A DNA stretch of 32,000 nucleotides from Desulfuromonadales bacterium (lineage in GTDB: Bacteria; Desulfobacterota; Desulfuromonadia; Geobacterales; Pseudopelobacteraceae), in assembly GCA_037129255.1 (NCBI GenBank), contig JBAXVG010000033.1:158-32157 (forward strand), in the 5' to 3' direction. Below the pieces are notes generated by a model. The model worked only from the letters and a program-made list of their open reading frames with translations. It searched no databases and was not told where the DNA came from. This document shows, piece by piece, positions 16,700 through 30,314 of this stretch. Within the stretch, counting starts at the first letter, position 1. Every line of letters begins with the position of its first letter. The translations under genes and the position numbers were made by a program.

Positions 16700-18841
16700 T
16701 CAAGCGAAACGATAAAAAGCAAACGCCAAAAGTTCCATTTCTCTGATTTCGAACAGAATTTTGAAGGGCAGGTGCATAATCATCCGTTTCTCTGCATCCG
16801 GCACAGATGAGAGTATCGTATCAACCTGCGCCTTCATACGCTTGATCTCGTTTGCAAGCGCCCTGGTGCCCCTGAAGGAACTCTGCAGGTAATAGTCCGC
16901 CTTATCCCACACAGTCTTGTTTCCGGCATTGCCGATATTTATGGTGTGCTCAAGCAGGGCGATGTTGCCGATCTTCCAGATCCAGTCATCATAGTTCTCG
17001 TTAGTCGATTTCAGCCAGGTATCCTTCAACTCCTGATAATTCACGGCGCTCTGGGCCAGGATATGCTCTCGCTGTATCATAATTCCATCGTCCTCATCGA
17101 TGTCGTAATCGAAAATCACGCCCAACTCCTGGTCTGTGTAGTCATACACCATACGATCATACTCGTAGAGGACGTATTTGTAGTTTCCATATCCCAGATC
17201 CCTGACCAGGTAATCCTTCTTATACCAAAATGAAAAATTGCGGACATGCTCAATAATTTCATCCACCACATTGCTTCCCCAGACAAAGCTGCCGACCGGA
17301 CGCTTCCCGATAGTCCAGATTGCAAGTTCATTTTCCTCAATCAGATTGAAGATCGTTGCCGGTCTGGAAGCAAACTGTCTGAATTCGTCGATCCGCACCA
17401 GACACATCATGTAGCGGTCTTTCAGGAATCCGAACAGCTCCTTGTACGGCCTGATCAGTTCGATATCTCGTGCAATGCCGGATTCTTGAATCAGAGAGAC
17501 GAGCTTGACGTTTGCCCCTTTGATCCGGTCGATATCTTCAAACAGGTTTATGGAGGCCAATTCTTCCTTTTTGGCAAAGGTCTGTCCCGGCTCCAACAGT
17601 GACTGTTCGATTAACGGAGTATTAGTGAAGATGTCAACCAGAAGAGCTTTACTAAATACCGATAGCCCCAGAACACTGAAGAGCTGTTTGAACGGATACC
17701 AGGTCTTGGAGGCGTACGGGTCTTTGTGGTTATGGGCCATTTCTCCCGGAACTGCTGTTTCGGCAACATACCTCATGAACACGATGATGTTCCGGAGCCT
17801 GTCAGTCAGGATGGGTATGATCAGTTTTATGTTATCTCTTTGCAGCACAAGTGTTTCGCGGAACACTTTGTTGATGGATTCGTAGATCCTGTCCTCGCCG
17901 GATTCATACCAGACATCTACCTTGCGGTCCTTGTCATCATCGCCGGTAATCAGATCGTTCAGGTACTTTCGGTAAAAGTCCTCTTTCAGCAGCATGAAAT
18001 TCAGTATCCGAATCACATCTGCTTCGGCACTCTCCGGTTTTGGATACACCTTAAGCGAACAGAGCAATTCAATTGTTTCAAACAGACCGCCAAAAAGGTT
18101 GTCGATCTCTCCTTCCAGGTCAATGTCCTTTTCGACCTTCTGAGCGTAGAACATCAGTGTGCTCTTGAGTTTTTCGGTGTTGGTCAGGCGCTTGCCACGA
18201 TCAGTCTGCGAAACGAACAGGGTTCCGGCCAGTTTTAGATCATCCTCGACCAGAATCTGAACGACTTGGATGTTACTCTGAACAAATCGCTTCAGATCAT
18301 CACGGCGTGGAAAATTCGCAAGGTGGCGTTGGAAATAGAGGTATGTCGCCTTTATGCGCCGATTGCTTTTGGTCTTTGCCTCAACCTCTTTGCCGTTGAC
18401 GAGATGCAGGAAATATTCGTAATCCACTTTGCCGGGGATCAGCTTGGGGATGGCAGCGTTGAAGAGGTGGGAGTTGATTTCGGCATCCTGGAAAGCAAGC
18501 AGGAAGAGGAAAAAGGTAGTGGTACGCTGCTGTCCATCGATAACAAAGTAGAAATCGTTGCAACCAGCGAGCGGCTTTAGCTGTTCATGGTTCAAAATGT
18601 CCTGATTGACATATTCGCCAAGCTGGTCATAGCCAACCTTGGCCAGATAGATGCTCCCCAGCAGATAGGGCAACTCTCCGGCCTCTGCGATGGCAAAGAC
18701 CATATCGTTCCAGAAGTCCTCGATATGTTTCTCTTCCCACGAATAAGGGCGCTGGTATTTCGGCATCAGGAAATAGCGGCATTCGCCGAACATTTCGGTG
18801 TAGTAGTTGGAGATTGAGACTTTGATTTTGCCGGGGGTCAT
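16700..18841 (-). CDS. GmrSD-like type IV restriction enzyme (N-terminal DUF262 ParB-like NTPase, C-terminal DUF1524 His-Me/HNH-like nuclease)
   Basis: DUF262 motifs are PKYQRPYSWEEKHIEDFWNDM and VIDGQQRTTTFFLFL. The C-terminal nuclease-like motifs are REHILAQS and IGNIALLEHTINIGNAGNK. 713 aa is a typical size for fused DUF262-DUF1524 proteins. Confidence 0.85.
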   Translation of the reverse strand: MTPGKIKVSISNYYTEMFGECRYFLMPKYQRPYSWEEKHIEDFWNDMVFAIAEAGELPYLLGSIYLAKVGYDQLGEYVNQDILNHEQLKPLAGCNDFYFVIDGQQRTTTFFLFLLAFQDAEINSHLFNAAIPKLIPGKVDYEYFLHLVNGKEVEAKTKSNRRIKATYLYFQRHLANFPRRDDLKRFVQSNIQVVQILVEDDLKLAGTLFVSQTDRGKRLTNTEKLKSTLMFYAQKVEKDIDLEGEIDNLFGGLFETIELLCSLKVYPKPESAEADVIRILNFMLLKEDFYRKYLNDLITGDDDKDRKVDVWYESGEDRIYESINKVFRETLVLQRDNIKLIIPILTDRLRNIIVFMRYVAETAVPGEMAHNHKDPYASKTWYPFKQLFSVLGLSVFSKALLVDIFTNTPLIEQSLLEPGQTFAKKEELASINLFEDIDRIKGANVKLVSLIQESGIARDIELIRPYKELFGFLKDRYMMCLVRIDEFRQFASRPATIFNLIEENELAIWTIGKRPVGSFVWGSNVVDEIIEHVRNFSFWYKKDYLVRDLGYGNYKYVLYEYDRMVYDYTDQELGVIFDYDIDEDDGIMIQREHILAQSAVNYQELKDTWLKSTNENYDDWIWKIGNIALLEHTINIGNAGNKTVWDKADYYLQSSFRGTRALANEIKRMKAQVDTILSSVPDAEKRMIMHLPFKILFEIREMELLAFAFYRFA

Positions 18842-18895
18842 AGCTGCTTCTCCAAAATCAGATACGGATTGATGCCATTCTTCCGAAACCGGTTA

Positions 18896-19306
18896 TTACA
18901 AGGATTCCATACCAAGTTTCTTTATAGCAGATTTGAACTTTTCGTCAAAAGTGATGATTATAGAATTTTTGATTGCCTTTCCTGTCGCTGCAATCAGCGT
19001 ATCACCAAAATCCGCAACCTTTGAAGGCCAAAATGAGAGCAGCACAGTAAAGTCGGTTTGCTGGCATAACTCTACCCCAGGCATGGTTATAAAATCGCGG
19101 AGCATTGCGTTAATCGTCTCTTTTGGAGTGCCATATACTTTGTCCATGACAAAAACAAATTCAGTCAATACGAACTGATGGCATACAAGAGTACATTTCA
19201 AACGGTATGCTGACTCAAAAAAAGAAGCGACAATTGCTTGCTGGGCCGGGTCTCTATCCGTGACAAAAGAGATAAGAGCGTTGGTATCAATGATGTACTT
19301 TTTCAC
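18896..19306 (-). CDS. vapC: PIN-domain ribonuclease toxin VapC
   Basis: 136 aa with acidic PIN residues in context (YIIDTNALI, VLTEFVFV, DFGDTLIAAT, IITFDEKF). The GTG start overlaps the upstream antitoxin stop (GTGA). Confidence 0.85.
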   Translation of the reverse strand: MKKYIIDTNALISFVTDRDPAQQAIVASFFESAYRLKCTLVCHQFVLTEFVFVMDKVYGTPKETINAMLRDFITMPGVELCQQTDFTVLLSFWPSKVADFGDTLIAATGKAIKNSIIITFDEKFKSAIKKLGMESL

Positions 19307-19645: not shown

Positions 19646-20323
19646 TTACACAATATTATCCGGGTGCAATTTGTCTTCAATCCATCGTTGCGGGTTATAT
19701 GCAACATATTCGGCAATCCGGTTGTAATCGGCATCATTGCGGATAACGTGTTCATGATAATTGCGTTGCCATACTGGTACACCAGGGGAATTGCGGGTTT
19801 CGTTGATACGTTTGGTTACGGCGGATTTGAAACCCGACAACAACGCGCCGATCGATTTTTGTTGTGGTCCAGACATCTGGACGACCGGCATTTGGGCGAC
19901 CGGCCGGTCGCCCCTACGTTGTTTTTCGTCTATACGGGTATCATCCGTTATCAAAACAATTCCATGAAAATGATTCGGCATTACCACAAATTCCCCCAAT
20001 TCAATCTCAGCACGAATTTCCGCCGAATGAATCCATTCAGCAGCAACAATCCTACCCAAATCATTCACAATCATTTCCCGTAGGGGCGAACGGCGTTCGC
20101 CCATGTTTTCGCGTTCGCCCAAGTTTTCGCGTACGTTTTCGCCCAGATTTTCGCCAGACATTTCAACGATCTCCCCAAACAGACATTCCCTGTTGTAAGC
20201 GCATATCGTCACAAAATACGCCCCTACCTGGGAATAATCATATCCCTTTAGACGGATTGAACGGCGATGATGTATATCCGGATTGAATTTCATATCGATA
20301 CCCAACATGCAATTTCCTGCCAT
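19646..20323 (-). CDS. REP-associated tyrosine transposase (RAYT; IS200/IS605 Y1 HUH family)
   Basis: MKFNPDIHHRRSIRLKGYDYSQVGAYFVTICAYNRECLFG, the HUH motif PNHFHGIVLI, and the catalytic Tyr region VWQRNYHEHVIRNDADYNRIAEYVAYNPQRW. Two in-frame ATGs are present (20323 and 20293); family N-termini favour 20293. The gene is surrounded by, and contains, GTAG-palindrome REPs. Confidence 0.8.
   Translation of the reverse strand: MAGNCMLGIDMKFNPDIHHRRSIRLKGYDYSQVGAYFVTICAYNRECLFGEIVEMSGENLGENVRENLGERENMGERRSPLREMIVNDLGRIVAAEWIHSAEIRAEIELGEFVVMPNHFHGIVLITDDTRIDEKQRRGDRPVAQMPVVQMSGPQQKSIGALLSGFKSAVTKRINETRNSPGVPVWQRNYHEHVIRNDADYNRIAEYVAYNPQRWIEDKLHPDNIV
19894..19917. repeat. REP copy inside the RAYT coding sequence
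   Basis: GGGCGACCGGCCGGTCGCCCCTAC is read in frame on the minus strand as ...RRGDRPVAQ... Confidence 0.75.
20080..20102. repeat. REP copy inside the RAYT coding sequence
   Basis: GTAGGGGCGAACGGCGTTCGCCC is read in frame on the minus strand as ...MGERRSPLR... It is flanked at 20103-20155 by short GTTTTCGC(N)CCC half-site repeats that encode GENLGENVRENLGEREN. Confidence 0.75.
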
Positions 20324-20352
20324 GTTCCGAATTCATTGATATATCGTCACAC

Positions 20353-20464
20353 GTAGGGGCGACCGGTGGTCGCCCTGTTGTTGATGTTCGTCCTGATGCA
20401 TCCGTTCGCCAATGTTTTCACCCTGCGATGATATCCAAACAGGGCGAACGCCGTTCGCCCCTAC
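20353..20464. repeat. REPIN (inverted REP doublet) copy 1
   Basis: GTAGGGGCGACCGGTGGTCGCCCTG, about 65 nt, then CAGGGCGAACGCCGTTCGCCCCTAC. Two REPs sit in inverted orientation with terminal GTAG/CTAC. Confidence 0.8.
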
Positions 20465-20596
20465 GATGATGTTTCGGTGCTTGCCGTATTCTTCAACGAC
20501 AACCCCGCCGTGCGGATGGTGCCGGTCTGAATTTCATATCGATACCCAACATGCAATTTCCTGCCATGTTCCGAATCCATTGATATATCGTCACAC

Positions 20597-20709
20597 GTAG
20601 GGGCGACCGGTGGTCGCCCTGGTGTTGATGTTCGTCCTGATGCATCCGTTCGCCAATGTTTTCACCCTGCGATGATATTCAAAACAGGGCGAACGCCGTT
20701 CGCCCCTAC
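20597..20709. repeat. REPIN copy 2
   Basis: Same architecture as copy 1, one tandem-repeat period downstream. Confidence 0.8.
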
Positions 20710-20841
20710 GATGATGTTTCGGTGCTTGCCTTATTCTTCAACGACAACCCCGCCGTGCGGATGGTGCCGGTATGAATTTCATATCGATACCCAACATGCA
20801 ATTTCCTGCCATGTTCCGAATTCATTGATATATCGTCACAC

Positions 20842-20951
20842 GTAGGGGCGACCGGTGGTCGCCCTGGTGTTGCTGTTCGCCCTGATGCATCCGTTCGCCA
20901 ATGTTTTCACCCTGCGATGACAATCATACAGGGCGAATCATTCGCCCCTAC
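20842..20951. repeat. REPIN copy 3 (distal REP degenerate)
   Basis: GTAGGGGCGACCGGTGGTCGCCCTG ... CAGGGCGAATCATTCGCCCCTAC. The second palindrome is shortened. Confidence 0.75.
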
Positions 20952-21119
20952 AAACCATCCCTAATACCACGGTAATCGTCTAATAAAACGTTTCAAGGCT
21001 TTTCTGGTTCTGTACCTCGCCCTGAATTGAAATTAGTTAGCATTCTCAAAGAAATTGTCATCATATATGCGCTCCTTTTGTATTAAATAGATGAATGCTG
21101 TATCAGATACATATTGAAA

Positions 21120-24071
21120 TCAATCTTTTTGCGTATCAGGTACCAGCATGGCTATTATTTCAGGTACTATATCTGTTTTTATTATGCTTAACTTGTCTCT
21201 GAAAAACTTTTGCATAACTTCCTGAGCCTTTTCGTTAATTACTTTCTTGTCTCTTCCTCCTGTCAATCTTGCATTCCATTCGGCATACTTGTACCAAGGC
21301 CAAGTATTAGATTGTCTCCCATAGCACAAGTTTTTATTATCATTCATCTGCTTACGTAGTATTTCCTTTTCTTCAGTCGTCAATAATCCTATATCAATTA
21401 TTCCATAATAGAGATCATCAAAATTTGCTTGCCCTGCTTCAATAGCAATGGTCAGTGTTCCTGGATCATGGCCAGTTCTTTTCCATGTTTCTTTGAATAT
21501 CCGAATGCTAGCCCAGCGTTCCAGTGATTTTGCATTTGATGTGATTTTCCAGCCATCTTTCGCCGGAAAAATGTCCTCTATTGACTTTGTCAGACCATCA
21601 ATCAAGTTATTCATCCCGCCAATAAAATAAACTAAGTCATTGTGATCATTACATAGCGATGAGATGAGTGGTTCAATTCTATTGATGCTTTTGGCCATCT
21701 CATTCAGGTAGTTCTCAAAAGATGACATTGCATCTCCAGCTATAAGAAGCGTGTCAAAATTGCTGCCGCCAGTGATGCTGTGTTTTGGCAAGGTTGCACT
21801 CCAAAACCCGTAGCGATTTTTGGCGTCATGCCCTTGTCCAAAAGCAAACTCACAGGCACCGCACACCATACCAAGTTTATGTTCGAACTGTGGATCAATC
21901 TGCTCATTCTGTCGGAGCGAAATAATTAGACCGTCGAAACAAGGCTTGGTTGGTATGATTTGAAGCATGAGCGGTGGGAGGTCATCATCCTTGGCTCCAT
22001 TATTCCTCCAAGAAGATCGCCAGATTTTAATTGCCGCATTGGGTTCTAGTGACGTAGCTTCGTTAATAACGTTCCAATCATTTCCCAAAAAGCCGGATAG
22101 CAGAACTCCAGAGCTTTCGGTGAATTTTACAACTTCTTCTAGGTGCTTTTTTAGAACAATAAATTCTGGAATCAGTTTATCAACTTGCTGAACTACATAA
22201 TTTTCAAAGCGATCAAACCATAGAGCGACTGCCCCACCGTCAAAATCTACTGAAACTTGTTCTTCAGTTTGAATGTAGGATTTTCTCGCCGTAATGAATG
22301 CCTGGATGGTTTTAGTTTCAAAGTCAGGTGGATCAAGATTTTTGAATTCAATCGCCATTCTTCTTGGGTTGCATTTGAACGCTGCTACAGCATCAAAATT
22401 AGCCACTTTAAGCTTTAGATATATTTCTTTATATGTCCACGGATGATCTAAATTAAACGTGCTGAATATCGCTTTAAACCCGTAGGGCTCTGTTTTTTTA
22501 GCGATCTCAGCTGTAATAAGTCTGAGCCTGTTGTATATATACATACCATTAGAGCATTGCTGGGGTTCTGGTGGAAACAAATCAATAGATCTATTCTGTA
22601 ATTCAGGTATGTTATGACAAGCATGGTCCATATCGTTTTCAAGTGCCTCTATAAGCTTCCTAAAAAAATCGACACAATATTTTACAAATTCACTTCTTTT
22701 TCCTTGCCAATTCTGACTTCTACTAGAAAGTCCACTGTTCCTCCAAGGGGTTTCCAGAGCAGCACACCATACAACTTTATCTTCTTTGGGCCCAGATTGA
22801 CCTTTCACAAGACTGTCTGCCTTTTGGAAAATATTTTCTCCTAAATCGCCTAACTCATACCAAGGTTCATATTTCAAAATTTCAATGTGAAGTTCTTCCA
22901 GTAATCTGACGCGACTTTCCAAAGTAAATGAGAGGATACCTCTAGCTCTGCTATCTTCTTTATCAATAGTTAAGGGGTATTTAGGCACCCATGCTTCTTT
23001 GTAGATGTTTATTTTGCCAAAAAAATGTTTATAGTAAGGGTGATTGCTAGTGCCTTCGTATGAATTAAAGGCATCAAGCCGTTCACCCTCTGGTGCGCCA
23101 ACTTTCCATTCAGGAAACTCTGCTCGCAATTTTATAAAAAGTTCAGTAATGGTTTCAGAAAGAAATTGTCCATAAAGAGCCCATTCAATTAGGTCAGGCA
23201 TGGTCTTCTCAAAGAATGCAATAACATTATCCCCAAAAATTCCAAAAAACTTATCCTCGGGCCAATCACAACGACCGATAGCCAAATGAAACGCCGGTTC
23301 AAAAATTGTAATTTTTTCTCGACGATTTGAAGTTTGAAGTGATCTAGGAAAATTTCTTTTTTGTTCCTTCGAAAATTCGTTGAATGCCCTCTTTAAAGGA
23401 TCATCCATAACAGCACAATCTACAAAAACCGACATTGTCTGGTTGCTAATATTCAATTGACATTTTAAGTCAACACCTGTTGCCCCAAGACGGAAAGGAA
23501 AGAAAACTTCAATTATCCCTCCCCCACAATCTTTGGCTGAAAACATGGAGTTAATTCTGCTCAAATCATTGGAATATTTCTTGTTTAGCACATTGGCTAA
23601 AATCCTTGCTAATGCAAGGTATCCAGACCCAGATCTTTCTCCCTCAGAAGTTTCTTTTCCCAAATTTTGTAAGACCGCCTCGATTGATGCGTTGTAGCGA
23701 GACAATGGATCATTTTCAAGAGCATCGATCCACTGCTTGTTTGAAAGATGGTACTTGAATGCTCCTAATAATTCTGTTTCTTCAATCCGGATAGGTAGGA
23801 TGGTCATGCGCCGTCCGTTTGCTAAATCAACTTCTTTTTCAACTTCAGCAGAACTCATTGAATCTTTTGATACAAGCAATACCATTATTGATGCTTTCTC
23901 GATTCCATCACTAATAGCTGTTGCCCACCTGCCACCTGGTGGGATATCCCGTGGAGCCATCCAACACGAGACACCAGCCCCTTCAACTACGTTGCAAAAC
24001 AGTTGGGCAAGTTCTTTATTTTTTGTACAGTAACTTATGAAAACTTCCTTCTTAACATTTTCATCTGCCAT
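21120..24071 (-). CDS. TIR-domain protein with ~840-aa C-terminal region built from five tandem ~165-aa modules
   Basis: N-terminal TIR domain: KKEVFISYCTKNKELAQ...GVSCWMAPRDIPPGGRW...ASIMVLLVSKDSMSSAEVEKEVDLA...ILPIRIE. The Glu in the xxEV position (probably E80) sits where the catalytic Glu of NADase TIRs lies. The rest is unassigned. AGGGGGA RBS 4-5 nt before the ATG. AT-rich (two rows counted, 35% and 43% G+C). Confidence 0.85.
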   Translation of the reverse strand: MADENVKKEVFISYCTKNKELAQLFCNVVEGAGVSCWMAPRDIPPGGRWATAISDGIEKASIMVLLVSKDSMSSAEVEKEVDLANGRRMTILPIRIEETELLGAFKYHLSNKQWIDALENDPLSRYNASIEAVLQNLGKETSEGERSGSGYLALARILANVLNKKYSNDLSRINSMFSAKDCGGGIIEVFFPFRLGATGVDLKCQLNISNQTMSVFVDCAVMDDPLKRAFNEFSKEQKRNFPRSLQTSNRREKITIFEPAFHLAIGRCDWPEDKFFGIFGDNVIAFFEKTMPDLIEWALYGQFLSETITELFIKLRAEFPEWKVGAPEGERLDAFNSYEGTSNHPYYKHFFGKINIYKEAWVPKYPLTIDKEDSRARGILSFTLESRVRLLEELHIEILKYEPWYELGDLGENIFQKADSLVKGQSGPKEDKVVWCAALETPWRNSGLSSRSQNWQGKRSEFVKYCVDFFRKLIEALENDMDHACHNIPELQNRSIDLFPPEPQQCSNGMYIYNRLRLITAEIAKKTEPYGFKAIFSTFNLDHPWTYKEIYLKLKVANFDAVAAFKCNPRRMAIEFKNLDPPDFETKTIQAFITARKSYIQTEEQVSVDFDGGAVALWFDRFENYVVQQVDKLIPEFIVLKKHLEEVVKFTESSGVLLSGFLGNDWNVINEATSLEPNAAIKIWRSSWRNNGAKDDDLPPLMLQIIPTKPCFDGLIISLRQNEQIDPQFEHKLGMVCGACEFAFGQGHDAKNRYGFWSATLPKHSITGGSNFDTLLIAGDAMSSFENYLNEMAKSINRIEPLISSLCNDHNDLVYFIGGMNNLIDGLTKSIEDIFPAKDGWKITSNAKSLERWASIRIFKETWKRTGHDPGTLTIAIEAGQANFDDLYYGIIDIGLLTTEEKEILRKQMNDNKNLCYGRQSNTWPWYKYAEWNARLTGGRDKKVINEKAQEVMQKFFRDKLSIIKTDIVPEIIAMLVPDTQKD

Positions 24072-24118
24072 AATTCCCCCTGTATGAAATTATTTTCTCG
24101 CAAAACATCTGCGCACCG

Positions 24119-25798
24119 TCAAACCTTATCAATAAACTCCCTGTGCATCTTCCACGCTTCACTATCAACAAGCTTCTTCAGATTCTTCACCATATCACGA
24201 TCTTTGTTTTTTTCATCCTCTGGCAGTTCACTATACGGTGTAGAACTCAACAAATTATGAAGCTTTCTGGGTTTGTCGGTAACCGCTGCATATCGCCAGC
24301 CGCTCATAAAGCGCTCTGCCTTCCAGCGCCGGTTTTCAAGTTCCGACAATGTTTCAATTGCATCATCCTGATTACAAAACTTTGCAAGTGTATCACCAGG
24401 GTTATCCTCGCATCTCAGCGCCCGAAGTTTAACTGAAACATGGTCAGCCGGCCAACGGTTTGCATCGCGCATGGTTTCATCGAGTTCTTCCCAAGGCGCT
24501 CCGCCACTATATGCCTGGTGAATGGCTTTGGCCAGTTCATCAGTCACCTCATCATGCAACACCTGATACCCGGTGCCAATATCCAGAATATTGAAGCCAT
24601 ACGTTTCAATATTTGCAGGTGAAGTGTTTCCACCTGACACCAGTTTTGAAAGCTGCGACTTCATATTTACTACTATCGGTGTGTTATCGTTACCCAGAAG
24701 TGTTCTGACACGTTGTGCCAGCGAAAGGCCAAGCGGATCATCATCCACAGCTACATAGACAATCACTGGTGCATGGTCTGCTGTTCCCATGATATCGGCA
24801 AGTGACGATATACATTCCGGGTCGCGATCCACAAAACGCACCTGAACATCAGACACAATCAAACCGGGTGGGTTCTTTCCATCGCCATACAGGGCAAAGA
24901 ACTTCTCTGAAACTGGCTTTATATTCCGGTCAAGTACTGTTATCTCCAGATTCTTCCAATCAACGTAATGCCCAACCCGCGCGGCTTGCTTTACTACTGC
25001 CTCCCCCGTCCTGCCAAATCCGATAACCGCAATCCGCAACGTATCGCCGGTGAAACCCTGCTCTATCGCATATTTGTCCGGTGGATATTTCTCAAACATC
25101 ACACGAGAGGCGGTTTCGTAAACATTGAAGATACTTGCGTCAAACGCCGTGCCCTGCTTTTTATACAGATCATGACCGGCAAAAATGTCCCGCAGGCTTG
25201 GACTTGCAATATGAGTGAAACAACGCAAGTTAGATTTATTGTCGTCCGCCTTGCTGACAAGTTCTTGTGCCTGATGTGTAATCTCTATGTTATCGTGGTC
25301 GCTTCCGGTAACTGCAAACAGATATCTGGCACAGGTGATATTTGCTTCTTCCAGAATAACAGGATCGCCGGAATCACCGATAATAACCGTCGCGCCTCTC
25401 TCACGGCAGCCGCTGATATCCGGGTGATCTTTTTTTGATTCTATGACCACAACACGTTTTTCCCGCTTGATATATTCTTCCACCAGTCTCATCCCTTTTT
25501 CACCAAGTCCGCAGATAACAACATGGCCGCGTGACTGGTGCAGGCGGATCAAAGCGTACTTCTCGCAAATTTCCTTCCAGAAGGCCTGGATGGAACCGAG
25601 AGCAGTTCCACCGGCACCTAAAAACTTGGCTATCTTGAAGAGCGTTTTCTGTTGCTCTGATGTTCCAAAGAAAACGGCTGCAATACCGCCGATCAAGGCC
25701 AGTACTGCGATCACCAGCAGAGCAATTACAAACCACCAGGAATAGCGACGGCTCCAACGGCCAATTGTGGAATACGTGGAAATACTCTTTTCTGTCAT
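24119..25798 (-). CDS. membrane protein: N-terminal TM segments, two Rossmann (TrkA-N-like NAD-binding) domains, C-terminal RyR domain
   Basis: TM helix WWFVIALLVIAVLALIGGIAAVFF. GxGxxG with an acidic beta2 end (HVVICGLGEKGMRLV...RVVVIE). Second Rossmann IAVIGFGRTGEAVV...EITVLD. C-terminal LAKAIHQAY...PWEELDETMRDANRWPADHVSVKL and ENRRWKAERFMSGWRY...KLHNLLSSTPYSELPEDEKNKDRDMV match the bacterial RyR-domain pattern. The ATG lies 4 nt after the upstream stop. Confidence 0.7.
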   Translation of the reverse strand: MTEKSISTYSTIGRWSRRYSWWFVIALLVIAVLALIGGIAAVFFGTSEQQKTLFKIAKFLGAGGTALGSIQAFWKEICEKYALIRLHQSRGHVVICGLGEKGMRLVEEYIKREKRVVVIESKKDHPDISGCRERGATVIIGDSGDPVILEEANITCARYLFAVTGSDHDNIEITHQAQELVSKADDNKSNLRCFTHIASPSLRDIFAGHDLYKKQGTAFDASIFNVYETASRVMFEKYPPDKYAIEQGFTGDTLRIAVIGFGRTGEAVVKQAARVGHYVDWKNLEITVLDRNIKPVSEKFFALYGDGKNPPGLIVSDVQVRFVDRDPECISSLADIMGTADHAPVIVYVAVDDDPLGLSLAQRVRTLLGNDNTPIVVNMKSQLSKLVSGGNTSPANIETYGFNILDIGTGYQVLHDEVTDELAKAIHQAYSGGAPWEELDETMRDANRWPADHVSVKLRALRCEDNPGDTLAKFCNQDDAIETLSELENRRWKAERFMSGWRYAAVTDKPRKLHNLLSSTPYSELPEDEKNKDRDMVKNLKKLVDSEAWKMHREFIDKV

Positions 25799-25802
25799 GG
25801 CA

Positions 25803-27581
25803 TCACCCCTGAGGTACTTCTATGGGACGTTCACGGTGCATGAGTACCCAATCGCCGTTCTCGGCCAAGGCCTCCTTGCCAACCGCCAGAATAATTTCCC
25901 GCTGGCACGTTTTGTCATAAGTACCGCTATCCAGCAGTTGCAGGCTTTTTGTGAAAACGCCGTACATCCGGGCATACTGCTTGGCCTGCTCGGCATACAG
26001 CATCCGTTCGGCATAAAACTTCAGAGCTCCGGAAATAACAAAGATAAGCGGGGTAGCAACCTGCATCCAGGGGTCAAGCGTATCCCCTCCCAGTTTCATA
26101 CCATGAATGATCAGCATGGCAGGGGTTACTGCGAAGAAGCCCAGGCGGAAAAGGAAGGTTGATATTGTATCCAATTTTTCAGCTTCCTTTTTATTCCAGC
26201 GCGCTTTTTTTCCGAAATAGTCCCTTTGGTTTTCCAGCCAATACTCGCGTATAGCTGAAAGGTTACAAGGTGCCGCCGTCTCTGCACAACCTCTGTAGGC
26301 CAACAGATTCCAAGTCTTGACCGCGTAACGTATCCAGTTAAGCTCTGACTGCTGCTTGCTCAAGTAGAACGAGGCCGGATTTTCGCTGACCCCGGCCAGT
26401 TGCCAGAACAGACTGACCCGCATCCCCTCAGCCAGAGCACGGTAGTCGAGAAACTTCTCCGGGGCACCCTGGCGATGGGTGATACTATAGATACCGTAAG
26501 CAAGCCCCAGAAAGAGCAGGTATCCGGAAATGGCAAACATAGCTGTGGTCACGTTGGTATAGGTTTCACCGAAGAAAACGATAAACGGAACCAGCGAGGC
26601 CAGCAGCAGCAAGACACTGTAGGTTTCCTTTTGAAACTGTTGAGAAAGAACGTCAGCATGAGTAAAGTAGTGCAGCAGTTGTCTGGCTGATGGTGAAAGG
26701 TCTGCCTGGGTGAAGGGGGGCTGATCTATGGGAATCACATATTTTGCCGCTTCCTTGCGCCTGTCGTCAAAATCAGGAACCAGCCGGTATATATCATTCG
26801 AATCCCCATTGAAAAGTTCGATACAGGCCAGGGTGCGCAGGTGCTCGTCTTCCCGGATTCCCTTCCCGTCATCAGTAAGCGGGTACAGCAGTTGCACCCC
26901 TGCCGGCGCATCCCGTTCTGCCCGGTGCTTCTCGATAAAGTCAACATCCTGCGATACGTTGGAAGCATTTGTTCGCCTGGTTGGAACGTAATAAACCACT
27001 CCGGTTTGCACGGGGTTGAACAGCGATATACCGGGCTGTCGGGAATCGTCAGCGCCATACAATTGCATGCGTACAACGTGCGATGTGCCGCCGGACGGAC
27101 CATTTGTCGCACCGTCCCACAGGGCAATCAGCACCTGACTCTGCTCAACGATGAAGCGGCCAACAGCGAGGTATTGCAGATCCCGTGAAATTTCTTCGGC
27201 AGCTGCCGCTTCCGAATTCCCATTTTCAAGCGGCAATTCGAGCGAAAACACTGCCTGCGCCAACAAGTACCGAAACTGACTGACCGATTCCGGGGAAAAA
27301 TCCTGTTCATACAGTTCCTGCGACATCGGTAACGGCACAACAAGTTCAATACCGGCATCCAGCGCCGCTTCAGCAGCCAAACGGTCTGCTCCATCAGCCA
27401 GGGCAGAGACGAGCATCAACGGGGTACGAGGATACTCCTCATGCAGATGATCAATAATAGCCCGTATCTTTTGCTTCAAGTCAGGTTTATCTTCGTCAAG
27501 GATGTCACGGTGACCAGTGACCCCAATCAGTAGCGGTAATGTGGTCTGGTTTAGTGTTTGAGCGTTACTGGTATCTGCCAT
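25803..27581 (-). CDS. SLOG-superfamily (YpsA/LOG/DprA-like) nucleotide-sensor domain fused to a four-TM region with SLATT-like C-terminal 2TM module
   Basis: SLOG-type motifs are LIGVTGHRD, LVSALADGADRLAAEAALDAG and WDGATNGPSGGTSHVV (Gly-rich phosphate loop). Hydrophobic helices are VLLLLASLVPFIVFFG, AMFAISGYLLFLGLAYGIYSI, ISTFLFRLGFFAVTPAMLII and VATPLIFVISGALKFY. The last pair is preceded by YWLENQRDYFGKKARWNKKEAEKL, as in DUF4231/SLATT modules. The ATG at 27581 follows AAGGAG (the ORF-track M1 is a GTG at 27590). Confidence 0.7.
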   Translation of the reverse strand: MADTSNAQTLNQTTLPLLIGVTGHRDILDEDKPDLKQKIRAIIDHLHEEYPRTPLMLVSALADGADRLAAEAALDAGIELVVPLPMSQELYEQDFSPESVSQFRYLLAQAVFSLELPLENGNSEAAAAEEISRDLQYLAVGRFIVEQSQVLIALWDGATNGPSGGTSHVVRMQLYGADDSRQPGISLFNPVQTGVVYYVPTRRTNASNVSQDVDFIEKHRAERDAPAGVQLLYPLTDDGKGIREDEHLRTLACIELFNGDSNDIYRLVPDFDDRRKEAAKYVIPIDQPPFTQADLSPSARQLLHYFTHADVLSQQFQKETYSVLLLLASLVPFIVFFGETYTNVTTAMFAISGYLLFLGLAYGIYSITHRQGAPEKFLDYRALAEGMRVSLFWQLAGVSENPASFYLSKQQSELNWIRYAVKTWNLLAYRGCAETAAPCNLSAIREYWLENQRDYFGKKARWNKKEAEKLDTISTFLFRLGFFAVTPAMLIIHGMKLGGDTLDPWMQVATPLIFVISGALKFYAERMLYAEQAKQYARMYGVFTKSLQLLDSGTYDKTCQREIILAVGKEALAENGDWVLMHRERPIEVPQG

Positions 27582-27594
27582 AATGATCACTCCT

Positions 27595-29057
27595 TCAGGC
27601 GTTATTGAGGCTCAGGTGCTGAACAATCCTCACCATCGCCAGAGAATCCTGTCCACAGTATTTCAGCATATTCTGCCGCAGAGCCTCACGACGTTCCGGT
27701 GCTGTCGTTTCATGAATCGCTTCCAGAAATGCAGTCTGAGCTTCCATCCCGTTGCTTACTTCTTCAAGGTTGTCGTAGGAGAGGTCAGGGGCGATGGTCG
27801 GCAGTACCGCCTTAATTGACCATGAACCGTGCATATCCGGGTGGTAATAATTCTGGCGGAGCAGCGGCAGCAGGTCGATAATTCGCTCCTGAAGGGTGGC
27901 AAGCGAGGCCTGCAGGTCCGGGTACAGTTCGATCAGAATACCGATAACCATTCGTTCAAAATGTCCATACGTGATAATTGGGCCGACTGTTCCTAAGTCG
28001 GCAATCATTTGATCAGCAAGTGAGCGCATGGGTGGACCACCGCTGATATCTAGGAATTCGAGATGTGTGACAGTATCATCTGGCTGTTCAACATGGCAGG
28101 AATATTGGAACGGAAGCTGTTGGTAAGGGCGAGTGCCGGCCCAGATCGGGATGGCAAACATAATTGTCTCGAAATCGAGGTAATAGCGCGGGAAACCAAT
28201 CTGCTGCAGTTCAGATTGCAGGGCGGGATCTACCTGCGGCTTACCAGTTGAGACCGCATCCCAAATCCTTCGATGTTTCTCGTTAGTCAGCCGCTCCGTG
28301 GGACATTTCGGAGGTCGGTAAAACCTTCATCCAACAATTGAAGTTCAATACGGGTTGCTCCGGGGAGGGTTTCCGTCGGGTATTCAAAGCCGGATTGAGC
28401 GGGTGAACAGTGTAAGCAGTAGGGGCACTCAAAGGGCGAATAGCACTGATCTCCCGGCATTATTTCAGGTTCACTACCCGTAAGCATTTCCCGGAAATCG
28501 CTTACCCATTTCGGAATCTCAACCCTCAGAGAATTTACCTGCTCAGTTACATCCTCTGACTGAAAAAGTCCGCGGTAGTCGTTACCTCCGGGATACACAA
28601 AGCTGTTGTCAATGTGGGTCAGATGGACGGTAGACAGCGGGATGTTATTGCCGATAACCCATGCCTGGATAGAAATGTCCGGAACATGGTAGTCCTTTAC
28701 GGAGGTGGATGATTTGGCTTCGTAAAGTTTATAGGAAGCATTATCCTTTTCGAGAAGATCGGCACGAATCAGAACCCCCTGATGTGAAAATGTGGCCTCA
28801 AATATTCGGAGCTCCCCTGCTTGTACCAACCGTTCCGTTTCCTGAAGCGCCTTGCCGAGACCTTGCTCACCCTTTACAAATTTTCCATCGGGATACAAGG
28901 TTCGGAAAACATCATGCAGCGCAAGCCCCGCCTGAAGACGCTCATTTGTCTCGTCAGAGACCTCGGCACATTCAGGGCGGTTTACTGTCAACCAGAGTCT
29001 TTTTCTGCATTGCAGACCTTCGATTATTTTTGACTTGGAAAGGTTGCAGGGGTGCAT
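27595..29057 (-). pseudogene. DUF2779-family protein (N-terminal PD-(D/E)xK/Cas4-like region, C-terminal RNase H-like region) split by a single frameshift
   Basis: The upstream half (28287-29057/29105) has LSKSKIIEGLQCRKRLW and EAKSSTSVKDYHVPDISIQAWV. The downstream frame is open from 28326 and reads ...ERLTNEKHRRIWDAVSTGKPQVDPALQSELQQIGFPRYYLDFETIMFAIPIWAGTRPYQQLPFQYSCH, the DUF2779 core, before the ORF-track ATG at 28161. The two frames overlap at 28290-28326, so one indel there restores a protein of about 500 aa. Its stop overlaps the RBS of the SLOG gene. Confidence 0.7.
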
Positions 29058-29162
29058 AAGCTTAAACCTCGACACTGAAAGGCTCGGCATGACCGTTATC
29101 GGCACCGCCGTACTGGTGGGATGAGGACTTCCTCCACAAATAAATGGAGGCGGAAGATAATT

Positions 29163-30314
29163 CTACCTGACAAGTAAAGCAGTTTTCATCCTCTGCAACG
29201 CCTCAATAAGCAGGGATCTGTTGCAGCCGAAATTGAGCCGTACGAATCCGGGAGCGTCAAAGTCTGCGCCGTTCGACAGCCCAACCCCTGCTTCTTCAAA
29301 AAAATGGCCGGGATTTTCAATACCGGTGGCACGTGCATCAATCCAGGCCAGATATGTCGCTTCCGCATGTGCGACTGTCAGACCCGGCATGGCGGATATT
29401 TCACGTTCCACCAGATCACGATTGTCGCGCAGATAGTCCAGCAGAGCGGCACGCCACGGTTCTCCATCCCGGTACACCGATTCAGCCGCAGTATATGCAA
29501 ACAGGTTCAGGTGCGGCACCAGCCTTCCCATAGCTTTTTTAAAGAGGTTACGCAGCCCGGGGTTTGAGATGACAGCAAACGAACAGCCCAGGCCGGGAAT
29601 GTTATACGTCTTGCTTGGAGCCAGCAGGGTAATGGTACGACTCGCAATTTCCGGAGCCAGCGCGGCGATAGGGATATGACGCAGATTTCTGTCCAGGATC
29701 AGCTCGGAATGAATATCGTCAGAACCGATGGTCAGATTATGGCGCTCGGCAATATCGAAAAACTGCAGAAGCTCCTCCTGATGCCAGGCTCTCCCGACCG
29801 GATTGTGCGGGTTGCAGAGGAGCAGCAGTTTTGTGCGCGGCGTAATTGCCTTTTCAAGCGAGACAAAGTCCGGTATCCAGCGGCCGCCGCTCAGCGTCAG
29901 CGGAACTTTGCTGACGGTGCGTTCAGTCAGCAGCGGCGCCGACATGAAAGGGGGATAGACCGGAGTAAAGGTCAACACATCATCGCCCGATTCACCGATG
30001 GCACGACAGAGAACGTTAAGCCCGCAGACCAGACCCGGCAGCCAGACAAGCCATTCCGGGGCAATCGTCCAGTCATAGTCACGAATCAAGGCAGCTTGAA
30101 CTATATCGATCAACCCCTGTTCGGGGTAGGTATACCCGAATACACCATGCTCGACACGATCATGCAGAGCCTTAATCAGGGCAGGCGGTGAACGGAAATC
30201 CATATCCGCAACCCAGAGAGGAAGTATGTCACGCCCTTTGTATTTGTTCCATTTTTCACTGCCGGTATTGTTACGATTTATCGGGGTGTCAAAATCAAAG
30301 TGTGATTTTATCAT
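29163..30314 (-). CDS. PatB/MalY-family PLP-dependent C-S lyase (cystathionine beta-lyase-like aminotransferase class I/II)
   Basis: FDTPINRNNTGSEKWNKY, ILPLWVADMDF, LCNPHNPVGR, and the PLP-lysine motif APSKTYNIPGLG. Confidence 0.85.
   Translation of the reverse strand: MIKSHFDFDTPINRNNTGSEKWNKYKGRDILPLWVADMDFRSPPALIKALHDRVEHGVFGYTYPEQGLIDIVQAALIRDYDWTIAPEWLVWLPGLVCGLNVLCRAIGESGDDVLTFTPVYPPFMSAPLLTERTVSKVPLTLSGGRWIPDFVSLEKAITPRTKLLLLCNPHNPVGRAWHQEELLQFFDIAERHNLTIGSDDIHSELILDRNLRHIPIAALAPEIASRTITLLAPSKTYNIPGLGCSFAVISNPGLRNLFKKAMGRLVPHLNLFAYTAAESVYRDGEPWRAALLDYLRDNRDLVEREISAMPGLTVAHAEATYLAWIDARATGIENPGHFFEEAGVGLSNGADFDAPGFVRLNFGCNRSLLIEALQRMKTALLVR

Follow-up and report, generated by a model that had tools for sequence, protein, structure and literature searches.

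A three-gene TIR cassette and its SLOG-4TM gene

We analysed a 32,000-nucleotide stretch of DNA from Desulfuromonadales bacterium (contig JBAXVG010000033.1 of assembly GCA_037129255.1, positions 158 to 32,157; hereafter the window), centring on a gene whose product joins an N-terminal SLOG domain to four predicted transmembrane (TM) helices and is referred to here as SLOG-4TM. The gene belongs to a cassette of three genes on one strand, in the order SLOG-4TM, TM-RCK-RyR and TIR, with gaps of 4 nt and 47 nt. An earlier interpretation made from the letters of this DNA (the original prediction) had linked SLOG-4TM with the TIR gene, a link supported by the common strand, the tight arrangement and a clear TIR_2 match; the middle gene between the two is the part that it overlooked. 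The features of the cassette, with protein lengths in amino acids (aa), are as follows.

25803..27581, minus strand: SLOG-4TM gene, 592 aa (open reading frame, ribosome-binding site, full-length homologues)
26877..27539, minus strand: SLOG (YspA/YpsA-like) Rossmannoid domain of SLOG-4TM, residues ~15-235 (Pfam YAcAr, invariant motifs, Foldseek)
26382..26684, minus strand: first SLATT-like module of SLOG-4TM, SLATT_3-type, residues ~300-400 (NCBIfam, hydropathy, model, conservation)
25929..26270, minus strand: second SLATT-like module of SLOG-4TM, SLATT_1/DUF4231-type, residues ~438-551 (NCBIfam, family hidden Markov models (HMMs), hydropathy)
24119..25798, minus strand: partner gene, TM-TrkA_N(RCK)-RyR, 559 aa (Pfam TrkA_N and RyR, PDB sequence matches, junction sequence)
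21120..24071, minus strand: TIR-domain gene, 983 aa (Pfam TIR_2, 76.9 bits)

The SLOG-4TM reading frame is a real, conserved gene. Its open frame (25803-27590, minus strand) spans 595 codons, an AGGAG lies 8 nt 5' of the ATG at 27581, and the 592-aa start was also called in three independent metagenome assemblies. Since the AGGAG spacing and the independent gene calls agree on this ATG, the coordinates 25803-27581, which had been given correctly from the outset, were retained. At least 821 full-length homologues (550-840 aa, query coverage 96-100%) were scored in a word-indexed search, and a profile search of 1.84 billion representatives recovered 4,225 cluster representatives at E<=1e-30 and 11,672 at E<=1e-3, so that the family comprises at least 4,225 clusters (clustering at 50% identity). 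Relatives were found in at least 556 species stretches in a scan of GTDB species genomes, covering many phyla and one Thermoplasmatales metagenome-assembled genome (MAG). The source names shown among the best 120 homologues read 'hypothetical protein', with the single exception of 'Ca2+/Na+ antiporter', and no model for the SLOG-4TM protein was found in PADLOC. Two SLOG-4TM paralogues occur at one locus (L005, 1341-2981 and 5926-7713) with two LPP20-like lipoprotein genes between them and no TIR gene nearby, a TIR-independent context. The family alignment, conservation values and HMM counts given below refer to 83 members, and neighbour counts to 83 non-redundant loci.

SLOG domain and tandem membrane modules

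Fold and motifs identify the N-terminal domain as a SLOG domain, and the HMM evidence agrees marginally. PF10686 YAcAr, the YspA/cpYpsA-related SLOG family, covers residues 24-85 with 28.2 bits, a borderline value equal to the gathering score of 28.2, and was matched by 16 of the 83 family members at E<=0.01. Residues G20, T22, G23, H24, R25 and D26, then G64, A65, D66 and R67, and further W155, D156, G157, G164, G165 and T166 are invariant or at least 90% conserved, corresponding to the consensus motifs GVTGHRD, LAEGADR and WDG...GGT. The AlphaFold2 (AF2) model of the protein, for which the family alignment served as input, had a predicted local distance difference test score (pLDDT) of 93.1 and a predicted template-modelling score (pTM) of 0.92. 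When its N-terminal ~235 residues were compared with the PDB by Foldseek, they matched YpsA (2nx2, E 1.2e-4, target TM-score 0.63) and further DprA, ShosA, TM1055 and the MoCo carrier protein; against BFVD, the domain resembled phage DprA-like and YspA SLOG proteins, with TM-scores up to 0.74. The original prediction of a SLOG-type domain carrying GHR, GAD and GGT motifs thus holds, and the possibility of a non-SLOG fold, raised along with it, is answered by the likeness of the model to YpsA, DprA and ShosA. Foldseek matches to TRPM, ClyA and XaxA were not used as evidence owing to their low probability and root-mean-square deviation (RMSD) of ~30 Å.

The LOG-type motif is GGxGTxxE, with the Glu three residues past the Thr. 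This Glu is not conserved in the SLOG-4TM family, whose consensus after GGT is xxIVxFKL, and the nearest folds are non-catalytic; on both grounds a sensor role of the SLOG domain is favoured, and we predict that it provides a cytoplasmic pocket for a nucleotide-derived ligand. No SIR2 domain was found in the protein in Pfam, NCBIfam or PADLOC scans. One could instead suppose that the SLOG domain is an enzyme acting on a nucleotide by cleavage or remodelling, for instance to degrade the TIR signal or make a second messenger, the 4TM part being a mere anchor or localiser. Invariant polar residues (H24, D66 and R133) could be catalytic, and LOG-clade SLOG domains are indeed N-glycosidases within a range of SLOG roles that spans enzyme to sensor (PMC9503650). 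However, the lack of a conserved LOG-type Glu, the non-catalytic nature of YpsA and DprA, and the full-length conservation of the TM module and juxtamembrane helices, which exceeds what a simple anchor needs, make an enzymatic role very improbable.

Between the SLOG domain and the membrane, the original prediction placed a ~120-aa linker. The region is present, but it is not a loose linker: AF2 shows confidently modelled, ordered strands and helices at residues 195-232 and 244-282, residues ~236-300 are modelled confidently as helices, and a long helix (297-343) follows. Four hydropathy peaks were observed, TM1 (~322-342) and TM2 (~345-368) in module 1 and TM3 (~472-495) and TM4 (~503-525) in module 2, and all four persist in the family-mean hydropathy profile, in agreement with the four helices originally proposed. 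They are arranged as two 2TM hairpins, at 322-368 and 472-525, each with a very short outer loop and cytoplasmic flanking helices. The helices of module 1 in the model run from 297 to 343, 348 to 371 and 373 to 395, and amphipathic helices flank TM3 and TM4 in the second module. Because the two short outer loops (~3-8 residues) are poor in Lys and Arg and the flanks are rich in them, the predicted topology is N-in/C-in, with the SLOG domain in the cytoplasm.

The modules resemble SLATT families; the original prediction had likened the C-terminal helix pair to SLATT/DUF4231. With NCBIfam models, SLATT_3 matched residues 307-397 of the window protein (E 1.5e-3, 18.6 bits against a cut-off of 45) and SLATT_1 matched residues 451-521 (E 0.05, 13.6 bits against a cut-off of 41). 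These matches are weak; at family level DUF4231 was matched by 35 of 83 members at E<=0.01, SLATT_1 by 19 and SLATT_3 by 18, and an L005 paralogue has the identical module order, SLATT_3 then SLATT_1. An origin of the TM modules by internal duplication was considered and rejected, as hhalign related module 1 to module 2 with a probability of only 4.8%; they are described here as two different SLATT-type modules and not as repeats. Conservation is weak within the TM helices (mean column identity 0.38-0.43); among the C-terminal segments it is highest in the juxtamembrane helix past TM2 (LDYRALAEGxRVxxFW, mean 0.67) and at the very end of the protein (ENGDW..HRERP, 0.59). Searching PDB sequences with a profile of the family alignment yielded only chance matches to occludin.

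The RCK-RyR partner, the TIR gene and their genomic context

From its N-terminus, the partner protein consists of a TM segment (~17-48) and a Rossmann domain of the TrkA_N/RCK kind (93-183); another Rossmann-like region (~255-300) precedes the C-terminal RyR domain (Repeat12; 478-549). Both Pfam matches exceed the gathering score (TrkA_N 78 bits; RyR, PF02026, 35.2 bits against a cut-off of 27.4), and PDB sequence matches included RyR1 repeats 1-2 (chimera 6uhi, E 1.3e-11), Bacteroides 3nrt, YbaL, Kch and TrkA. The gene starts 4 nt past the SLOG-4TM stop codon, and its product is the best-conserved member of the cassette, with 86% identity to the homologue at the related locus L095 against 71% for SLOG-4TM.

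Alignment of partner homologues indicated that the pore loop is absent from the window partner and its clade, the TxGYG selectivity filter is missing from the window partner, and the pore regions of the homologues at L042, L056 and L093 are degenerate. The homologue at L036 has a canonical K+ channel pore (TMTTIGYGDFFP; TTIGYGD filter; Ion_trans_2 67.7 bits), then TrkA_N and RyR. This single protein with K+ channel pore, TrkA_N/RCK and RyR (L036:6054-7862, plus strand, in an Armatimonadetes MAG) is flanked by a small RyR protein and a 1,122-aa TIR protein on one side and by a SLOG-4TM gene on the other, and it is a candidate K+ channel gated by isomers of cyclic ADP-ribose (cADPR). Next to SLOG-4TM genes, RyR further occurs in a small protein of its own or fused to AAA/STAND ATPases. 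Such AAA/STAND-type NTPases with a C-terminal RyR, located beside SLOG-4TM genes at L019:2546-4651, L035:11148-13901 and L055:1744-4869, are a third context of host-encoded RyR domains.

RyR Repeat12 domains of phages bind 3'cADPR, 2'cADPR and cADPR in the nanomolar to sub-micromolar range, and phage RyDEP cuts the ribose-ribose bond via H75 and D117 (PMC13232231; 10.64898/2026.06.04.730250; 2026 preprints). Alignment with RyDEP (MN234187 gene 78) showed that equivalents of W78, H100 and D117 are present in the window partner, and that the equivalent of H75 is Asn there and His in most partner homologues. Because the W/H/D contacts are kept and the catalytic His is replaced by Asn, binding is favoured over cleavage, and we infer that the window copy of RyR probably binds its ligand without glycosidase activity.

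The ancestry of the partner bears on a second possibility, namely that SLOG-4TM and RCK-RyR together form a regulated ion-channel complex of the Trk/Ktr or MthK kind and not a lytic pore. In such an assembly of membrane subunit and RCK ring, ligand-gated ion flux would be controlled by ADP-ribose (ADPR) derivatives and NAD(H) and might be reversible, with K+ loss and dormancy as outcomes. K+ channel-RCK proteins are the ancestors of the partner, as illustrated by the L036 homologue with its Ion_trans_2 pore, TTIGYGD filter, TrkA_N and RyR; the 4-nt coupling of the two genes and the high conservation of the partner point the same way, and the effector of type X Thoeris is an ion channel (10.64898/2025.12.03.692087). 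Nevertheless, the pore loop and filter have been lost from the window partner, and the RCK-RyR gene is absent beside most TIR-linked family members. We therefore regard a channel complex as unlikely.

The TIR_2 domain of the third gene covers residues 10-120 of its product (window 23712-24044) and contains the catalytic-type Glu E80, a column occupied by Glu in 41 of the 42 TIRs adjoining family members. Searches of PDB and Pfam with the C-terminal 843 aa gave no match, and the sole PADLOC match in this part was a weak one to PDC-S26 (residues 821-965). The ~840-aa C-terminal region is presumed to be the infection sensor. The wiring might also run in reverse, with TIR as the NAD+-depleting killer and SLOG-4TM, RCK-RyR or both as upstream sensors of membrane state or metabolites, given that many bacterial TIRs are NADase effectors and that RCK domains sense NAD(H) or ions. 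This arrangement deserves very little credence, as the TIR protein has a long, variable, sensor-like C-terminal region of its own, and SLOG and RyR domains receive TIR products in the systems characterised so far.

The trio of SLOG-4TM, RCK-RyR and TIR genes was found in nine loci across phyla, with L095, L096, L004 and L097 close to the window and L036, L042, L056 and L093 distant from it. The 4-nt junction between SLOG-4TM and the partner is kept in four of the five close loci, and the gene order at L093 is TrkA_N-RyR, SLOG-4TM, DUF4062 and TIR-NACHT-WD40. Identities to the window proteins at the close loci are listed below.

L095: SLOG-4TM 71%, RCK-RyR 86%, TIR 44%
L096: SLOG-4TM 63%, RCK-RyR 72%, TIR 64%
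L004: SLOG-4TM 45%, RCK-RyR 57%, TIR 44%
L097: SLOG-4TM 49%, RCK-RyR 47%, TIR replaced by a different, shorter TIR-SAP protein

From this pattern it follows that SLOG-4TM and RCK-RyR co-evolve and that the TIR sensor has been swapped or is fast-evolving, a combination typical of defence sensors; the discordant TIR identities suggest that modules have been swapped or that the sensor is under diversifying selection. In all five loci, TIR is moreover the cassette gene poorest in G+C (39% against 48-52% in the window), lying below the other cassette genes by about 2-14 points in the four related loci. The contrast in G+C between the SLOG-4TM gene (52.2%) and the TIR gene (39.3%) described by the original prediction is hence real and recurrent, but its figure of 58% for SLOG-4TM was wrong.

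Two further features of the window flank the cassette.

27595..29105, minus strand: DUF2779 (RecB-like) gene, frameshifted (Pfam on a 188-aa fragment, blastx)
16700-19306, minus strand: GmrSD-type restriction gene (713 aa) and MazE/PIN toxin-antitoxin pair (annotation of the identical contig L001)

The DUF2779 gene lies directly upstream of the cassette, with a 13-nt gap. Its frame changes at ~28296-28302, as judged by blastx against the intact L095 protein, and the split is identical in three independent assemblies of the window sequence; at L095 and L096, the two closest loci, an unbroken copy of the gene (483-489 aa) occupies this position. Its membership in the system is uncertain. GmrSD is also found 3' of the cassette in L096 and L004, and the surroundings in the window and its closest relatives are defence-island-like, with GmrSD, MazE/PIN or PemK, and transposases. 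Positions 20278-20937, immediately 3' of the TIR gene, hold a ~245-bp unit in three tandem copies, each with G+C-rich palindromes of 26-28 nt (GGGGCGACCGGTGGTCGCCC-like); the copies overlap the start of a gene at 19646-20323 (minus strand) with a weak match to IS200-like Y1 transposases (E 0.0014, 19.2 bits, under the Pfam cut-off of 23 bits); the palindromic repeats and the Y1-like gene may represent a REP/RAYT-type arrangement. A promoter and terminator scan of 20300-29400 was uninformative, its counts equalling the shuffled expectation.

Across the family, a TIR gene lies within three genes of SLOG-4TM at 26 of the 83 loci, a RyR gene at 11 and either of them at 29. Among 116 immediate neighbours scanned with Pfam, TIR_2 was the top family (14); ThsB_TIR (7), RyR (5), DUF4062 (4) and STAND/TPR/NACHT proteins were also present. 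The link to TIR and RyR genes is thus strong, though it does not extend to all loci. The SLATT-like module is fused to SLOG and has TIR as its commonest neighbouring family. Many loci carry TIR and SLOG-4TM only, which leaves SLOG-4TM as the only conserved effector candidate there.

The same census raises the question of whether the module serves a purpose other than anti-phage defence, as a housekeeping or developmental NAD/ADPR-linked membrane module or an NLR-type conflict system of multicellular bacteria. About 65% of loci lack a TIR or RyR gene in the vicinity, cyclases, HAMP proteins and ion channels are among the neighbours, Thioploca and Thiomargarita have members, some members adjoin NACHT-WD40, CHAT and TPR proteins, and two published tests (see below) showed no defence. 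On the other hand, the window cassette and its closest relatives adjoin GmrSD, toxin-antitoxin pairs and transposases, the TIR gene is swapped or divergent beside two co-evolving genes in the manner usual for defence sensors, and the distribution of the SLOG-4TM gene is patchy and cuts across phyla. A role outside anti-phage defence thus appears improbable.

Proposed function and relation to known systems

A December 2025 preprint (10.64898/2025.12.03.692087) divides Thoeris into types I-XI and names 29 classes of putative effectors; in it, 'SLOG and 4TM' is a listed putative effector class (Tables S1/S2), the SLATT effector ThsH of type VII is activated by canonical cADPR, and the SLOG domain of ThsA binds 3'cADPR. 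SLATT is named in Pfam as the 'SMODS and SLOG-associating 2TM effector domain' and, according to later papers, had already been predicted to form nucleotide-responsive pores (PMC9503650). The SLOG-4TM architecture is accordingly an already predicted class. The original prediction, which saw in it a new hybrid of two Thoeris logics on the premise that known effectors are only SIR2-SLOG or TM-Macro proteins, has been overtaken by these classes. What is new here is the conserved three-gene form with its host-encoded RCK-RyR partner, plus the channel-bearing relatives. Within the portion of the preprint covered, TrkA, RCK and ryanodine are unmentioned in the supplements, RyR and TrkA are absent from the main text, and the window TIR is not in the corresponding part of Table S1.

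We consider it probable that SLOG-4TM acts as the membrane effector in a Thoeris-like TIR signalling system of three genes. Signal-gated membrane damage is its most plausible function, which agrees with the ligand-gated pore formation or membrane disruption of the original prediction. Upon infection, the TIR protein (983 aa) would sense a phage component through its large C-terminal region, and its TIR domain would convert NAD+ into an ADPR-derived signal. The SLOG pocket, with GHRD, GADR, W155-D-G and GGT located where strands end, would bind this signal; the SLATT hairpins and the juxtamembrane helices, which are conserved, may then rearrange and open or oligomerise. The inner membrane would become leaky or depolarised, leading to growth arrest or death and stopping phage replication. 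By means of its RyR domain, the RCK-RyR protein would probably bind this ADPR derivative or one related to it; the protein may bind NAD(H) too, and might act as co-effector, gating partner or threshold-setting buffer. We put forward only tentatively the more specific proposal of a three-component Thoeris variant, in which a host RyR domain on a membrane-anchored, channel-derived RCK protein is a second cADPR-isomer receptor that cooperates with the SLOG-gated SLATT effector.

Several points weigh against an effector role. The SLATT HMM scores of the window protein are under the curated cut-offs, and the TM module is without likeness to any solved structure in the Foldseek and PDB profile searches, so pore formation is argued by analogy only. 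About two thirds of family loci lack a TIR or RyR gene within three genes, and the family may therefore also respond to other ligands. Several of the neighbouring TIRs sit on STAND/NLR-type proteins, where TIR may be a NAD-depleting effector and not a signal maker. Furthermore, two 'SLOG and 4TM' systems, from Streptomyces sp. GKU 895 and Ca. Nitrospira nitrosa COMA1, were each tested once as two-gene constructs in E. coli and gave no defence (10.64898/2025.12.03.692087). That this class is the same as the SLOG-4TM family could not be proved: the two published TIR sequences matched the loci studied here only weakly by BLAST, the N. nitrosa TIR had no identical protein-database entry (best match 64%) and its homologue on the one usable contig had no SLOG-4TM neighbour, and the Streptomyces TIR had no match in a protein-database search. 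As for the negative two-gene tests, the conserved trio suggests that the RCK-RyR partner may be required in this lineage.

If its members are indeed TIR-signal-gated membrane effectors, the SLOG-4TM family, whose ~4,000 clusters are spread over many phyla and reach at least one MAG of an archaeon, would be a class of putative bacterial immune effectors. A host RyR in a TIR operon would place RyR domains on the side of defence as well as counter-defence, extending the 2026 phage RyR findings. The three-component variant, should it exist, would offer a simple bacterial model for the long debate over whether cADPR gates ion flux by direct action on RyR-type domains. Bacterial immunity would thereby be linked to eukaryotic cADPR/RyR and ADPR/TRPM2 signalling, with TIR, SLOG-TM and RyR logic (compare SARM1/CD38, TRPM2 and RyR) united in one prokaryotic operon.

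Among known systems, the cassette shares with the 'SLOG and 4TM' class, compared by description, the stated architecture and the TIR adjacency, and that class is likewise predicted to be activated by a TIR signal; the cassette differs in its third gene, RCK-RyR, which is unmentioned for the class. Type I ThsA (SIR2-SLOG) also combines SLOG with an adjacent TIR gene, and its SLOG domain receives a TIR-made cADPR isomer, but its output is a soluble SIR2 NADase, whereas SLOG-4TM has two SLATT-like TM hairpins, no detected SIR2 and a SLOG domain of the YAcAr/YspA subfamily. Type VII ThsH and the SLATT (2TM/4TM) effectors of CBASS resemble it in the SLATT-type TM hairpin and are activated by nucleotide signals. 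ThsH has a SLATT annotation only, with positively charged pockets between protomers predicted by AlphaFold3 (AF3), in contrast to the dedicated N-terminal SLOG domain and two non-identical tandem SLATT modules of SLOG-4TM. The type II TM-Macro effector shares the fusion of a cytoplasmic domain that binds an ADPR derivative (predicted for SLOG-4TM) to TM helices and the logic of membrane damage; its sensor, however, is a Macro domain that binds His-ADPR, and the TM modules are unrelated.

Phage RyDEP and RyR Tad correspond to the C-terminal PF02026 domain of the partner, in which the equivalents of W78, H100 and D117 are kept, but they are small, soluble, phage-encoded anti-Thoeris sponges or glycosidases, whereas the RyR domain here is host-encoded, fused to TM and RCK within a TIR operon, and has Asn in place of H75. 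TRPM2 and the ryanodine receptor offer a functional analogy only. A 6TM channel core is absent here, and the structural matches to TRPM have a Foldseek probability of 0.2-0.33 and an RMSD of ~30 Å; the analogy lies in the pairing of a SLOG-type domain with TM helices, as in TRPM, and in the RyR Repeat12 domain on a channel-derived protein, both modules adjoining a TIR enzyme of the cADPR-making type.

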